Shown here: positions 57,842 to 64,000 of the stretch, one piece after another
How positions within the stretch are numbered: the stretch's first letter is position 1
Layout of the letters: every line of letters begins with the position of its first letter
Source of the DNA: Candidatus Limnocylindrales bacterium
Lineage (GTDB): Bacteria; Moduliflexota; Moduliflexia; Moduliflexales; JAUQPW01
NCBI GenBank assembly: GCA_035559535.1
Contig: DATMBG010000021.1
Span: 1 to 64,000 of the forward strand
Direction: 5' to 3'
DNA: 64,000 bases
Program-made: the position numbers and the translations under genes
Notes under the pieces: generated by a model
The model's input: the letters and a program-made list of their open reading frames with translations, nothing else
Told to the model about the DNA's origin: nothing
Databases searched by the model: none

Positions 57842-58525
57842 TTGAAAACGACAGCGAAAAGGCAAAAGGAGTTTTCTCGCCTTCCTCAACATGTAGGTAT
57901 TATTCCAGACGGAAACCGTCGTTGGGCAAAGAAGCGAGGTCTTGCGCAGCAGGAAGGTTATGAGGCTGGAATTGAGCCCGGACTTCGTCTCCTGAATCTT
58001 TGTCGGGAACTGGGAATTAAAGAAGCTTCGGTTTATGGTTTCACCAAGGAGAATGTACATCGACCGTCCGAACAAATCGAGAAGTTTCGAGAGGCCTGCG
58101 TAAAGTTTGTTTTCTCTGCCATTGAAGTGGGTGCGGCTTTGCTGGTCGTGGGTGATTCGGACTCTCCCGTTTTTCCAGATGCCCTTCGGCCTTTTACAAA
58201 ACAACGGACCCAGGGAGATATTCGGGTTAATTTGCTGGTAAACTATGGCTGGCAATGGGATCTCCTGTCAGCTCTGGAACATGCACGAACCAACAATACC
58301 CTTTCCTACTCTGGAATACCACGGGCTTTGGCTTCCGGGGATGTTTCACGCGTGGATCTTGTTGTACGTTGGGGTGGACGTCGTCGTCTTTCCGGCTTTC
58401 TGCCGATCCAATGTGCCTATGCAGATATGTATGTCATCGATACTCTTTGGCCGGACATGACTCTAGAGGAATTCTTAGATGCCCTTCGCTGGTATCAGGA
58501 ACAGGACATCACCCTGGGCGGATAA
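57842..58525 (+). CDS. cis-prenyltransferase (UppS family), divergent paralog
   Basis: PQHVGIIPDGNRRWA, YGFTKEN..R, NYGW, DLVVRWGGRRRLSGFLP. Confidence 0.88.
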   Translation: MKTTAKRQKEFSRLPQHVGIIPDGNRRWAKKRGLAQQEGYEAGIEPGLRLLNLCRELGIKEASVYGFTKENVHRPSEQIEKFREACVKFVFSAIEVGAALLVVGDSDSPVFPDALRPFTKQRTQGDIRVNLLVNYGWQWDLLSALEHARTNNTLSYSGIPRALASGDVSRVDLVVRWGGRRRLSGFLPIQCAYADMYVIDTLWPDMTLEEFLDALRWYQEQDITLGG

Positions 58526-58848
58526 TCCCCTTTGAGAACGACTGTAGAGGTGTTACAGATGCTCTACAGCCGTTCTTAACTCATCTAGAGTAGCCCGTCC
58601 TACCGGCTTGCAGATACCTCAAACCTGGAAGATGATACGCTTCCCCCCTATAGAACGCCCTTCTATCTGCGACTGGATTTCAATATCGAAGGGGTATAAA
58701 TCCATAGTTTATGGGAACAGATCGCCATGGATCCTTATCCAGGTCTTCCCCACCGAATACCTCTCCATATTTATTCTTAATGGGTGTAAATTTAAAGATC
58801 AATTGACCCAACCGGTTTTTCAGTACCCGGCCCTCAAATCGGATCCGA

Positions 58849-61800
58849 TTACTTTACCCTGATCTCAATACCCGGGATCGTCCCGACTTTTTCTGCATCA
58901 TACATGTCGTGAACGGATATATAAAGCCTGCCATACCCCGGACGGATAGCAACGGCATCGACCGTGAGTTCTTCTCGCTCGATAGGGAGGTAAGCGGTTT
59001 GTGCGTTGGCTCCTCCTTTGAGTAAGGCCAGGTTACCGGGCAAGAAAAGCCGTACCAGCGGAGCAAGAGCCTGCTCTCTGGGGGTAATGGTGATCTGGAC
59101 CCGTTCACCCACGCGAAGCCGGGCCTTGGTCAGTTTAACCGCAAACTGGAAATGAGCCCGTGGCTCCAGGTGATTGATCTCGATCTCTTCATCTATCCGC
59201 ACCATCAGGTTATCGTTGAGGGCTGTGACTTCCTGACCTATGGTAACATCCTTCAATATGACTTCCTTCCCGTCTATCACCGCCCGAGGGGATGGGTCAA
59301 ACCGAAGAAAGGCCAGCAATTCTACCAATGCTCGGGTATCGGCCGTGGAGTATAGCATGCCGTTGATTAGCCTGCTGGTAACAAAGGTAAACGCCGGACG
59401 AAATAATTCATCCCCGGCATGGTACATTACTCTGGCAACATCGGCAGTTACCTCTAGATTACCGCCCCAGGCCGACTTTGCTTTCCAGTAGGCCTTGTCC
59501 CCTTCTCGCTGAACGGTCCGGCGCAAAAATTGTAAAGATATATCGCGTTGGTTATTGCCGGCAAAGTAGTAGGCAACTGCGTCTTCCGGGCCAGACATCT
59601 CCCTACGGAAATGCATATCCAAAAGTAGAAGTGCATTATCCCGATACCCGGCTCTGAGCAAAGCACCTTTGGCTTTATTCAACATGGTCTCGGCCAGAGG
59701 AAATGGTAGATCTCGCAACCCCAGCAGACGGTGTACCACACGTGCTGTAATGTCTATTTCAGGCTGTCCCCCACACCAGAGGGAATATAAACCGTCGGGA
59801 TATTGGAATGTCGACAGGTGGTGTAGGCCTGCAAGTATACGGCCATGGGTAGCAGGCAAGTCCCCAGGTACCACCCCGCTAACAATGCCACAATAGGCTA
59901 CGGCCAGCCCATACAGGGCGCTTGCGGTCTGCTCTGCTCAGCCAAAGGGGTAGTGAATCAGGGCAGTAACAGTGTCCCTCAGTACCGGTCCCATGGAAGG
60001 GTAAACGACCACCCGCTCACCCTGGACGGTCTGACCCTGGTCCAGGATCATCAACCGGGAAGCCGTCACCTTCTGCACCCCGGGTCCATCTATGGCACGA
60101 ACACTCCAATCTGATCCGGTCTGATTTTCAATGCGAACCTCCACACGACCTGGGCCTTTGATCAAGATGCATTCCGTACCCTCACCCTGGACCCGAGTTT
60201 GGGTTCTATCAAAAGGCGTGGCAATAATCAGATCAGCAGGCTCGCGGGTATGATAATGAACCGCGGCGGTAATAGCATCTCCGACACTGGCAATGGTGGG
60301 TAGATCCAACTCAGCATATAGTGGTTTATCCACTTGAATATCCGAAGTGAGTTCGCGGTAGTCTACCTCCTGGAATAAGTAAGCCCGCACACGCCAGGTA
60401 CCAATCTGATCCCCCAATTTGACCTTGCGTGAAACCTGACCATTCAGGCAAAGTAGCTCCAGGTGGACCATCTCAGGGAACTCCATGCGGATAGGAGCTA
60501 CCATTACCTCCGGTAGCTTGTCTGTAGTCATGAGGAAGTCTAACTCACGCGCAGCCCCCGCCGGGCTGATGTCGGACTGCAGAGAGAAATCTTTTTGAAA
60601 GCTCATAATGATGTCGGGCTCCATAATAAGGAAATCAAGGTCACCAGGTAGAACTAAGTCCTCGTCTTGTAGGTTAGATACCGACCCGGCAGCCAAACTA
60701 TGGGTCGCCTCTCGGATGCTTTCGTAAATCCTTTTGGCGAGTTTGGGGAGGAGGCTCTCGTGTTCCAGTCGGGCGTCGTAGACCAGAAGCAGACAAAAAA
60801 GTGGATGGATGGAAGACCCAACAGGGGAGATAGAGGAAGGAAGATCACCATTTTCAGTCCCCGATTTTGGATCCTGAACCTCTCCACCATTCTCCCATGT
60901 TGTTTTAAGGTGGATTGTAACTTCTTCACCGGGCTGTGCAGTGGCCGGCACGGTTAGCATGGCTTCAAACGCCAGTGGCTTGATCACAACGCCCCAACCC
61001 TCAAAGGGTTTTTCTCGGGTAAATGCCCCAACCGTGAACAGGGTATAGGGTGCTTCGGCGTCAAACTCGAGGGTTTCACCCTGTTTGAGGTCGGCCCGGT
61101 CGATTACCTGGCTGATTCCGGTACGTGGGTTGAAGACGATGAGCTGGGTCGTTAACAGGTCTGTAACCACCTGCAGTCTGCCTCTGACTGCCTGGATACT
61201 TTCCAGGACCAGGGGAGTCCTGTTAACTTCACCCAAACCGACATAAAAGCCCCGCAAAGGCTGAGCGTTCTCCCAGGGTATCAACCCCATCCTGGCCGTC
61301 TGACCCAGCAGGTTGATCGGGATAGGTTTTCGTTCTTTGACACCGGTTCCCGGAAACGAAACAAGCGCTGTATGACCTTCTGGCGTGATGACTTGTACAT
61401 GGAACGGACCACTATGATTTGAAAGATTAAATTGACCCCGAACGATACCCTTTTTGGCCTTTACCTTTTGCACGGCTACTACGCATTCACTACAAACCTG
61501 GCATTGCAATCCAAGCTCCACCGGACCCGAATAGGGTGTGGAAAGCAAAAATAGCTTGAGGGTGAAGGTAAGATATTGTCCTGTATACTGATATGTTTCC
61601 AGGATAGCCAGAAGGGGGGAAAGGGTAAACTCGGCTACACTGAAGGTACATTCAGCCTGGGTATTATCGGATAAGGTAACGATGGCCTTATACTCCCCTT
61701 CTTTTAGATCTGGGTAACGATGCAAAGCCAGACCTCCTGGATTGAGAGTTACCTTTGCCTCATACACCTTTTGTCCGGCCAGTTGGATCTCAACAGCGGC

Positions 61801-62196
61801 TTCATCCTCCGCCATATCCGGTGCAACAATGAACAGAGCTGCCTCGCTACCGGTTCGGTAAATCTTACGGTCGGTCACCACGGTCAGTAATTTAAGCGAA
61901 GGCCAGGGAAGTCGAGGCCGATCAGGTAATGATCCCTCTTGTCCCCTTGTTTTACCGCCGCCCGAGTTATCCCCGAAACTCACCCCGTGCCGGTGGAGCG
62001 AAAGGATCGTAGTCGCACAGTAGGTTTGAAGGGTTCCATCTACCTCTAACGTCACGGGGTGTTCGTTATCGGCCTGGACAAAGATAAACTGCTGGCCGAC
62101 AAATACCCGGTCGTATAAGTAACCTATATTCTGTTTACAATGGATACATACTTCAGCGTCAGCCGGATTAGGACGGAAACAGGTGGAACAATACAT
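58849..62196 (-). CDS. Alpha-2-macroglobulin family protein, 1115 aa, with in-frame UGA (putative Sec753) at the thioester cysteine
   Basis: The two track ORFs are in frame and joined by 21 sense codons after TGA (59938-59940). A2M motifs TDRKIYRTG, IRMEFPE, LGDQIGTWRV, KPLYAELDLP, YPFG-U-AEQT, FQYPDGLYSLW, DMYDAE. Confidence 0.82.
59903..59925 (-). promoter_or_regulatory. Bacterial SECIS-like stem-loop downstream of the in-frame UGA
   Basis: UGA-GCAGAGCAGACC-GCAAGC-GCCC-UGUAU-GGGC-UGGC; apical loop has GU at +24/+25. Confidence 0.65.
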
Positions 62197-62325
62197 AGAA
62201 ATCTCCTTTTTAATAACACTGATTTAAGAGTACTGGGTATCGAGTACTAGTAAATCAGTCCAGAGGGCCTGGTAGAGTGTCTAGGCAGATCTGGTAGACG
62301 TAGAAATTCTCTTTCCTTTCAGGGA

Positions 62326-64000
62326 TTACGGCCTGGGGAAAGCGGGAGGCATTGGCTCGATACAACCACTTCGACCCGCGTTCCGACAACGATCGTACTC
62401 ATCTTTTCTGCTATCGTAGTCGAGCCAGGCGTCTGCAGCGTCATTGGCCTGCCGCTCACCCATCAAATAGCTAAAGCGCTCAGCTTCGTTTCGGAATACC
62501 CTGCCTCTGGGATCTCGATAAGTACGAAACCCGATGAGTTGCCGTTCCTCCTCTGTACGGAAGGTAACGCTCAGGATTTGTCGCAGGTGCCGGGCCATAT
62601 AGGCTGCCTGGGCGTGGCCGTGTGCTGCGGCTTTATCGTACCAGAAGATGGCGGTGTTACGATCCTGGGGAACCCCCATACCATACTCGTAAGCGCGTCC
62701 TAAGCGGAACTCGCCCAGGTCATGGCCTTGCCTGGCACTCAAGGCATACCAATAGGCAGCGGTCATCCAATCCTCGGGTACCCCCTTGCCATCTTCGTAA
62801 AGGGCACCCAGGTTGCTCTGCGCCGTAGCGTTACCCTGCCGGGCCGAGAGCTGATACCACCGAGCTGCTTCGGTGTAATTCTGGAGGACTCCTTCCCCGT
62901 ACTCATATTGATACCCTATCTGTAATTGAGCCTGATCATAACCCAGTTTTGCCGCCTCCAGAAACCGTTGTGCGGCCGCTGCATAGTCCCCGGCGAGATA
63001 AAGTTCTTTGCCCTGCTCAAAGAGCGTGCGGGCATGGGTGGTTGCCTCGGTACTGGGGGTCGAGGGCTGACTTTGAATCGCATCGGAAGTAGATCCCCTT
63101 TCAGGTAGGGTCGACTGCGCCATCCCTGGTTTCGGTGGGGACGGAAAAGACCTGTCGTCTCTATCTGGTTCCTTGAGGTTCGTCTGTATCTCACTACTTC
63201 GTCGCCACACACCTGTGCCGAGATTACCTGTGGCTATCAGCGTGTCTGTATCCGGCAATTGATAAGTGCCCTCATCTGTATAACCGTGGGTTGACTTTAA
63301 ACTCCAATGTCCGTCCTTGATCGTAACACTTCCGCTATGGGGGGCCGGAGAGCCGGGCCCTTCACTTCGGAAGTTGTAAGTACCATCAGATTGGATCTCC
63401 CATATCCAGCGTGCCACACCCCTTGCATTGGGTACCTTGAGTTCCCAGATACCCACCACTGACGGCTCAACCGGACCGACAATGGCCGAAGTAGTTTCCG
63501 AAGGTTGTAACTTTGAGGAATCTTTCTTACCCACACGGACCCATAGTATAGTACCTTCCTTATCGGTCATCTCCAACCTATCGGCCTGAAGAATTTCATA
63601 GGTAGCTTCTGTGATCGGTCCATCAACCGGTATCATCTTCAACTGCCCATTGTCGGCTTCCACATGCATCTTAACTTCTGCACTCGAAATGACACGAATC
63701 GAATGGCCATTTGGACTGATCCGCCAAACCAGGGTCAACGGAATACCGTCCTTTACTACACTTGCCTGCCAGAGACCCACCAGGGCCGAATTTAATGGAT
63801 TTTGCGGAGACCCTCCTTGAGGAGCAGCCAAAACCTTATCTAAAAAAATAGGATCTATACCCGACGGTCGTGTTCCGGACGGAATCCGGGTCCATTGAAT
63901 TTCATCATAAGGGGATCCGGCTTCCTGGGTCGAAAAGGCATTGGTACTCTTCACAGCATATTTGCCATGGGCAAGATCCCCAGGCTTATTGGGAACCCTT
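62326..64000 (-). CDS. Sel1-repeat protein with repeated beta-rich domains (5' end outside window)
   Basis: Sel1 repeats (AQLQIG..YEYGEGV..NY.EAA.WY..SA.QG); two similar VGxW...WxIxxxG domains; frame stays open to the window end. Confidence 0.85.
   Translation of the reverse strand, partial: RVPNKPGDLAHGKYAVKSTNAFSTQEAGSPYDEIQWTRIPSGTRPSGIDPIFLDKVLAAPQGGSPQNPLNSALVGLWQASVVKDGIPLTLVWRISPNGHSIRVISSAEVKMHVEADNGQLKMIPVDGPITEATYEILQADRLEMTDKEGTILWVRVGKKDSSKLQPSETTSAIVGPVEPSVVGIWELKVPNARGVARWIWEIQSDGTYNFRSEGPGSPAPHSGSVTIKDGHWSLKSTHGYTDEGTYQLPDTDTLIATGNLGTGVWRRSSEIQTNLKEPDRDDRSFPSPPKPGMAQSTLPERGSTSDAIQSQPSTPSTEATTHARTLFEQGKELYLAGDYAAAAQRFLEAAKLGYDQAQLQIGYQYEYGEGVLQNYTEAARWYQLSARQGNATAQSNLGALYEDGKGVPEDWMTAAYWYALSARQGHDLGEFRLGRAYEYGMGVPQDRNTAIFWYDKAAAHGHAQAAYMARHLRQILSVTFRTEEERQLIGFRTYRDPRGRVFRNEAERFSYLMGERQANDAADAWLDYDSRKDEYDRCRNAGRSGCIEPMPPAFPRP

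Follow-up and report, generated by a model that had tools for sequence, protein, structure and literature searches.

Known relatives and the locus

Type I bacterial alpha-2-macroglobulins (A2Ms), such as ECAM/YfhM of Escherichia coli (5a42, 4ziq, 4rtd) and the Salmonella A2M (4u48), are chains of ~1600-1650 residues with a signal peptide and a lipobox, and the Cys of E. coli ECAM forms an internal thioester. The eukaryotic thioester-containing proteins (TEPs) are secreted Cys proteins, and we know of none that uses selenocysteine (Sec). Nearly all selenoproteins known to us use Sec for redox chemistry. Here we describe an A2M/TEP-like gene of Candidatus Limnocylindrales bacterium (assembly GCA_035559535.1) in which an in-frame UGA stands at the position of the thioester Cys and is followed by a short RNA hairpin, a probable bacterial Sec insertion sequence (bSECIS). 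The gene lies on the minus strand of the stretch of 64,000 nucleotides that was analysed (contig DATMBG010000021.1, positions 1 to 64,000; hereafter the window):

58849..62196, minus strand: A2M/TEP-fold gene of 1115 codons, read through one in-frame UGA (joined open reading frames, Pfam, profile and fold)
58851-58849, minus strand: stop codon TAA of the A2M-like gene (sequence)
59938..59940, minus strand: in-frame UGA, residue 753, at the thioester Cys position, predicted to be read as Sec (homologue alignment)
59929..59943, minus strand: codons G752-U753-A754-E755-Q756, a CxEQ-type (thio/seleno)ester motif (invariant motif)

The protein shares with the Type I bacterial A2Ms the profile match of the thioester domain (TED) with the motif aligned, the whole-chain fold (Foldseek E values of 7.2e-39 and 1.1e-37), the Gln of the CxEQ motif, and a variable disordered stretch where the bait region is expected. 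It differs from them in having UGA for the thioester Cys, in its length (~1115 residues), in starting with CxxC...CxxC with no signal peptide or lipobox visible by eye, in having no conserved neighbour gene among the loci examined, and in showing only 12-14% identity to them in the fold alignments. Its best or near-best fold matches are CD109 (8s3o), TEP1r (2pn5), A2ML1 (7q1y) and C3/C5, with E values from 2.1e-40 to about 1e-35.

Judging from the comparison of related sequences, we consider it highly probable that the apex of the hairpin is the SelB-binding tip of a genuine bSECIS that directs Sec insertion. At the UGA, the loop G-U and the G+C stem would hold SelB with GTP and Sec-tRNA(Sec) beside the ribosome, and decoding of the UGA as Sec would give one 1115-residue protein instead of a 752-residue fragment. 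Sec753 would then occupy the thioester Cys position (G-U-A-E-Q), for which an internal Sec753-Gln756 selenoester warhead would be the most likely consequence. The RNA itself would be an ordinary, though minimal, SECIS; what is unusual is Sec at an ester-forming position.

The UGA codon at the thioester position

Two open reading frames of the minus strand, 62196-59938 (752 aa) and 59874-58849, lie in the same frame and are linked by the TGA at 59940-59938, around which the read-through protein reads ...HYPFG-U-AEQTASALYGLAVA. Among 76 database homologues, 73 are 626-796 aa long, with matches confined to at most the first 67% of the query, two (P0003 and P0004) are full length and read FG-C-AEQT, and one is a distant classical A2M. 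The seven truncated homologues that were aligned all end in ...PFG. Because the public gene calls are cut at the UGA in 73 of the 76 homologues, the family is misannotated as two pieces.

A survey at the DNA level covered the window and 44 further loci; the site is present in 34 of these sequences, and the other 11 loci end before it. The codon at the site is TGA in 33 of the 34 and TGC in one (L039, from a Caldilineaceae metagenome-assembled genome), and the sequences that share a stop at the Cys codon are only 40-68% identical. Directly 3' of the UGA, six codons (+1 to +6) conserve the amino acids A E Q T S S while varying at synonymous sites (for example ACC/ACT/ACA/ACG and TCG/TCA/TCT/TCC), and the first in-frame start after the UGA lies 22 codons downstream. 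This stretch is evidently translated, since AEQTSS is under amino-acid selection and no start is available for 22 codons. The 362 codons downstream of the UGA stay in frame and are conserved, and 20 read-through genes contain no further stop. A global reassignment of TGA was ruled out, because 7 of 20 related genes terminate with TGA, which is therefore still a stop in these organisms. One UGA-form homologue (L040, 4001-7369) shows four further stops in one frame, owing to a frameshift or an assembly error, and for this reason it was excluded from the protein alignment and the tree.

Conservation of the hairpin

RNA positions are counted from the first base 3' of the UGA (+1), and residue numbers refer to the read-through protein. 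Three overlapping RNA elements are considered:

59907..59919, minus strand: putative SECIS apex, stem GCCC/GGGC with loop UGUAU and the invariant core CCC-UGUAY-GGG at 59918-59908 (conservation, synonymous constraint and bSECIS criteria)
59897..59932, minus strand: the apex with its most extended stem in the window (positions 6-41; -10.6 kcal/mol when the core is enforced), including the pairs G13-C35 and C14-G34
59887..59919, minus strand: competing hairpin, positions 19-51, loop GCCG at a spacing of 33 nt from the UGA, -13.4 kcal/mol, sharing UAUGGG with the apex (minimum free energy (MFE) fold)

In the apex, G19 C20 C21 C22 (59919-59916) pair with G28 G29 G30 C31 (59910-59907) and close the loop U23 G24 U25 A26 U27 (59915-59911), in which G24 is at 59914 and U25 at 59913; in a numbering that takes the U of the UGA as +1, the loop G becomes +27. 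An earlier note on this DNA had described the same letters, coordinates, stem and loop, correctly for the minus strand. The best GU-loop hairpin computed for the window spans positions 10-38 at -8.6 kcal/mol and likewise includes G13-C35 and C14-G34.

The 11 bases CCCUGUAUGGG are invariant in all 30 unique UGA-bearing sequences (UAC in three of them), so that the first refuting result named in the earlier note, a hairpin not conserved among UGA homologues, did not occur. The core pairs CCC/GGG are present in 30/30, exactly these being retained in the RNAalifold consensus. At the codon level, positions +7 to +10 read GCC or ACC (third base C in 31/31), CTG (31/31), TAT (28/31) and GGG (31/31). 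The synonymous identity of these four apex codons is 1.00, 1.00, 0.82 and 1.00, whereas the mean over the gene is 0.48 (758 scored columns in 20 genes) and other Leu and Gly columns nearby have values of 0.26-0.54. A synonymous identity of 1.0 is reached by only seven columns of the gene, among them those of residues 755, 760, 761 and 763. Of 375 four-codon windows, the one from residue 760 is the most constrained at synonymous sites, and the windows that overlap it come next. The constrained bases coincide exactly with the stem, the 5-nt loop and the stem, a pattern that fits selection on an RNA hairpin and that codon bias does not predict. The same scan showed a second, milder peak at residues 1004-1007 (59176-59187; four-codon mean 0.72, rank 5/375), in which residue 1007 has a value of 1.0.

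The lower stem is less uniform than the apex. Of the pairs drawn in the earlier note, C14-G34 is present in 28 of 28 distinct rows, where both bases are dictated by the amino acids, and G17-U32 holds in part (21/28), while G13-C35 (2/28) turned out to be specific to the window. An alternative lower stem of G17-C35 (22/28) and C18-G34 (25/28) with a 2-nt 3' bulge leaves 88.1% of cells paired in a six-pair model, and the register of the lower stem differs between relatives and clades. With the core enforced, all 30 sequences reach -5.0 kcal/mol or better and 20 of them reach -7.5 kcal/mol or better.

Cys forms as a control

The Cys orthologue L039, the only one for which DNA is available, lacks the apex, so that the second refuting result of the earlier note, a hairpin equally present in Cys homologues, was not seen in it. 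It reads GCC CUC UAC GGU, with three synonymous changes by which the pair C20-G30 and the loop G are lost (loop UCUAC), and its best bSECIS-compliant hairpin has only -3.0 kcal/mol. When seven distant paralogues, which read YP[FHY]GC[VI]EQ, are included, one of eight Cys sequences has a compliant hairpin at -7.5 kcal/mol or better. A comparable behaviour of the loop G is reported for hydrogenases, where it is found in 100% of Sec-type but about 26% of Cys-type sequences (PMC13582414).

In a FastTree tree rooted on four of the seven paralogues (the other three, L040 and partial loci were left out), the two Cys orthologues are sisters (support 86) and nested within the Sec forms, in a 13-row clade with support 98. 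From this nesting, Sec looks ancestral to the family, and Cys looks like a reversion that was followed by decay of the SECIS. The order to which the genomes G062 and G061 belong yielded no new Cys orthologue, the gene being present in 2 of its 56 genomes, and a sample of 401 Chloroflexota genomes gave one orthologue and eight distant Cys-type paralogues; the distribution in Chloroflexota is therefore patchy.

The L039 locus (G062:C25:12190-17629) encodes P0004, a protein of 1361 aa with a long N-terminal extension, TPR-like (tetratricopeptide repeat-like) by eye, and without the CxxC...CxxC start. Beside this gene lies a partial second copy, a 759-aa frame matching residues 29-507.

Comparison with known bacterial SECIS elements

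In the consensus model of bSECISearch that the Fig. 2 legend of PMC13188914 gives, an apical loop of 3-9 nt sits on an upper stem of 4-16 bp, at least one G is found in the first two loop positions and is usually followed by G or U, the spacing from the UGA is 16-37 nt, and the MFE is -7.5 kcal/mol or lower. The hairpin of the window agrees with the model on all four points. It has a 5-nt loop on a 4-bp stem, of which only 3 bp are invariant in the family; G24-U25 are the second and third loop bases in 30/30 UGA sequences; every sequence has a spacing of 22 nt; and the window's hairpin scores -8.6 kcal/mol, or -10.6 kcal/mol with the core enforced. In addition, the hairpin stands directly 3' of an in-frame UGA aligned with Cys, in a genome that has tRNA-Sec, SelA, SelB and SelD.

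The element thus resembles the bacterial SECIS, as far as that legend describes it, in being a stem-loop inside the reading frame 3' of the UGA, with a 5-nt loop containing GU, a G+C upper stem and a 22-nt spacing. It also resembles it in the loss of the apex from the Cys reversion form. It differs in its very short invariant stem (3 bp; 4 bp in the window) and in a lower stem that shifts register. It has no conserved bulged U, unlike the archetypal SECIS of E. coli fdhF.

Sec machinery and other probable selenoproteins of the host

The genome that carries the gene encodes tRNA-Sec (74.5 bits), SelB (408.6 bits, C32:117846-119741) and SelA (622.1 bits), and its SelD carries one in-frame TGA. 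Among five other carriers, tRNA-Sec was found in 5/5, SelB above the cut-off in 4/5, and SelD with an in-frame TGA in 4/5. The UGA form is also present in G061, a complete Anaerolineales chromosome, together with tRNA-Sec and a Sec-containing SelD. The spacing of the SelD SECIS is 32-33 in the Chloroflexota carriers G061, G062 and G065 (4 of 5 genes read).

Two more read-through candidates, both of known redox families, were found in the host genome: a member of the AhpC/TSA-redoxin family with W-U-G-I-C (C32:13376-13981; L096 76-681, minus strand) and an OsmC-like protein with G-G-U (C42:132117-132590; L097 217-690, plus strand). The hairpin loops after the UGA in the host's other read-through candidates are GGU, AGUUA and GGA, at spacings of 20, 16 and 26, all with G. 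SelD and the AhpC/redoxin-like and OsmC-like proteins of this genome share with the A2M-like gene a UGA aligned with a functional Cys of homologues and followed by a G-loop hairpin, but their Sec serves redox chemistry or selenium transfer, whereas here it would stand at the position that forms an acyl (ester) bond. The formate dehydrogenase alpha homologue of the host (C2:5113-7167, 855 bits) has no in-frame stop and is not a Sec form.

A protein of the A2M/TEP superfamily

Three parts of the protein are referred to below:

59308..59994, minus strand: helical TED-like domain carrying the predicted Sec, residues ~735-963 (AlphaFold2 (AF2) helices; TED_complement at 735-825; ECAM TED residues 1137-1319)
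60493..60657, minus strand: disordered, sequence-variable stretch, residues 514-568, a putative analogue of the bait region (pLDDT (predicted local distance difference test) <50, indels)
62137..62190, minus strand: N-terminal CxxC-x10-CxxC, residues 3-20, zinc-ribbon-like (sequence)

The protein matches Pfam A2M (E 1.3e-5, 25.4 bits against a cut-off of 21), and TED_complement spans the UGA at residues 735-825 with E 5.5e-4, which is below the cut-off of that family. A profile of 22 full-length sequences matches ECAM/YfhM (5a42, E 8.9e-13; also 4ziq and 4rtd) and the Salmonella A2M 4u48, with E values of 8.9e-13 to 2.1e-9 overall, and its alignment to ECAM places ypfGCaEQT on YPYGCLEQT. The AF2 model of the 1115-residue protein has a pLDDT of 83.3 and a pTM (predicted template modelling score) of 0.72, and both sides of the UGA fold into one A2M/TEP architecture. 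In a Foldseek search, this model matched CD109 (8s3o, E 2.1e-40), ECAM (7.2e-39), human A2M, TEP1r, C5 and C3, and the top matches (at least 500 chains) were all A2M/TEP/complement proteins. AF2, Foldseek and Pfam agree on a chain of macroglobulin (MG) beta-sandwich domains with an inserted helical TED, the architecture of the superfamily. From the profile and fold alignments, the UGA stands exactly at the thioester Cys of the superfamily, and in the 22 full-length sequences G752, C(U)753, A754, E755, Q756 and T757 are invariant.

We assign the protein to the A2M/TEP superfamily but do not class it as a Type I bacterial A2M, since it has 1115 residues, no visible signal peptide or lipobox and no NCBIfam match. 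NCBIfam and PADLOC gave no matches for the protein. Neither a signal sequence nor a lipobox was seen by eye in the N-terminus MYCSTCFRPNPADAEVCIHCKQ, which has no hydrophobic stretch (no predictor was run). C3, C6, C17 and C20 are conserved at 90% or more in the full-length alignment. Because the protein starts with CxxC-x10-CxxC and has no hydrophobic leader, it looks cytoplasmic, unlike the known bacterial A2Ms. Residues 514-568 have pLDDT <50, no consensus and many indels, and residues 437-461 are likewise disordered and hypervariable.

Alternative explanations

Several results weigh against a SECIS at this site or against its use in this host. In RNAfold, the segment 59945-59880 (minus strand) has a z score of +0.50, 128 of 200 shuffles folding as well; its unconstrained MFE structure is the different, overlapping hairpin; 15.8% of 1000 synonymous recodings with the gene's codon usage equal or beat the -8.6 kcal/mol GU-loop hairpin; and Rfam at gathering thresholds gives no match in the window. 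Since the fold of this one sequence does not exceed chance, the case rests on the comparison with relatives. Covariation counts on three structure models give no signal beyond column shuffles and the RNAalifold covariation term is 0; the compensatory changes that the earlier note had listed as a check among UGA homologues are absent, because the core pairs are constant, and support for the pairing comes instead from the constraint on synonymous sites. In 11 of 28 distinct rows G19-C31 is unpaired, a standard pair being present in the other 17, the core hairpin is weaker than -7.5 kcal/mol in 10 of 30 sequences, and the SelD SECIS elements of carrier lineages are stronger (6-7 G+C pairs, -10.6 to -16.6 kcal/mol). 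The loss of the apex in Cys homologues is seen in one orthologue DNA sequence (L039). In G061, detection of SelB was limited to an N-terminal remnant of 42 residues (C1:135772-135897), and nothing more of SelB was seen within ~4-5 kb upstream and 3 kb downstream of it. The gene lies in an island of higher G+C (0.51-0.53 against 0.41-0.46 in the flanks, at C21:58.5-69 kb of the 226-kb contig) and is present in one of nine genomes of the phylum, not including the same-genus genome G001, so that the SelB of the host may not be the one with which the hairpin co-evolved.

Four other explanations were considered. The working SECIS might be the overlapping hairpin at positions 19-51, with the hairpin described above merely a part of its 5' arm. 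This hairpin is the MFE fold of the window at -13.4 kcal/mol; in 14 of 30 sequences the UGUAY hairpin is not the best compliant one, and six of these have a 4-nt GCCG, GCUG or GCAG loop at spacing 33; and the SelD SECIS of three Chloroflexota carriers has a similar spacing. We nevertheless regard it as quite unlikely, because it is confined to the 'LAVAY' clade and is not formed in the 'LATGY' clade, codons +13 to +15 in its 3' arm (59898-59891, positions 40-47) are not unusual in synonymous identity (0.43, 0.29, 0.48), the constrained CCCUG lies outside its stem, the RNAalifold consensus holds only CCC/GGG, and its loop G is followed by C, not by G or U as is usual in the cited legend. It could nevertheless act as a competitor or modulator of the SECIS fold. 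Another view is that the 11-base element is kept for some other RNA or translational reason, such as a pause that aids folding of the ester pocket, and that decoding of the UGA depends on something else. The lack of covariation that would prove pairing speaks for this view, as does the second constraint peak at residues 1004-1007, which means that constraint alone is not unique to a SECIS. It seems very improbable to us, given that the constrained bases form an exact stem-loop-stem with the G-U and the distance from the UGA at the consensus of the bSECIS model, and that the element is lost with the change from UGA to UGC, in line with the loop G of the hydrogenases cited above.

We give hardly any credence to the view that the TGA is a true stop in a split or decaying gene, with an N-terminal MG part, a TED that is untranslated or separately started, and a hairpin that is due to chance or has another role. 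The public gene calls that end at PFG in 73 of 76 homologues, the insignificant single-sequence fold and the missing full SelB of G061 would agree with it, but 33 of 34 sequences, only 40-68% identical, have the stop precisely at the Cys codon, the 362 downstream codons are in frame and conserved, AEQTSS is selected without a preceding start, AF2 joins both halves in one A2M/TEP fold, and the Sec machinery is present. The earlier note had argued that the hairpin supports recoding over pseudogenisation; with the apex in 30/30 UGA sequences, the highest synonymous constraint of the gene and its decay in L039, this argument is very likely right. The remaining explanation accepts a genuine SECIS in a Chloroflexota source lineage and regards the gene here as a recent passenger that the host SelB decodes poorly or not at all. 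The G+C island, the occurrence in one of nine genomes of the phylum with absence from G001, the Anaerolineae-type nearest relatives and the lack of neighbours shared with the 44 loci are in its favour. On the other side, no damage is seen in the frame, the UGA, the apex or any invariant residue, and the host decodes SECIS elements with varied stems, G-containing loops and spacings of 16-26, so that we consider it rather unlikely. A genuine, minimal bSECIS at the apex stays our preferred reading.

Implications of a probable Sec at the ester-forming position

The conserved SECIS would put Sec at the one residue through which proteins of the macroglobulin/complement superfamily make their covalent-capture bond. 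An ester at this site, if formed, would be a natural protein selenoester, with Sec in acyl-transfer rather than redox chemistry, and it would offer a direct test of why selection favours Se over S in acyl chemistry. A selenoester should be far more reactive toward amines than a thioester, and so it could covalently trap a protease or tag an intracellular target. We tentatively propose, as a possibility that we rate a little below even, that this compact, cytoplasmic-looking A2M/TEP-like protein forms a natural Sec753-Gln756 selenoester and covalently traps a protease or tags a target in the cell, in at least 70 lineages (mostly Chloroflexota), with horizontal spread and in dependence on a minimal SECIS. 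The invariant 11-base apex would also serve as a simple marker for mending the annotations and, in the engineering of Sec insertion, as a compact SECIS.

The selenoprotein family is apparently unpublished. No relevant paper linking selenocysteine, selenoproteins or selenoesters to macroglobulins or thioester proteins was returned by full-text searches, and the words 'macroglobulin' and 'thioester' are absent from the main texts of PMC13188914, PMC13326102, PMC12013277 and bioRxiv 10.1101/2022.07.06.499078 (comprising a 2026 review, BSepDB, deep-Sep and a 2022 preprint on new selenoprotein families), whose supplementary lists could still name the family.

Genomic context

The closest relatives of the gene in the tree are Anaerolineae-type sequences. 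Homologues of six neighbours in the window were sought in the 44 related loci and none was found, and no neighbour is common to all 16 loci examined; the gene behaves as a stand-alone, horizontally moving gene. The island that contains it looks like horizontally acquired DNA. A misbinned contig was considered and rejected, since the G+C of the 226-kb contig is host-like outside the island.

Besides the A2M-like gene, the island (window 58500-64000, continuing to ~69000; G+C 0.49-0.54) contains genes for a Sel1-repeat protein of 643 aa whose N-terminus is signal-like, for a glycogen-debranching enzyme and for a member of the alpha-amylase family, all four genes being on the minus strand. A downstream gene of ~250-330 aa recurs in 7 of the 16 loci (L034, L035, L037, L040, L047, L048 and L030); six of these seven are of the 'LATGY' type, the seventh being L030, and five share a further conserved gene.

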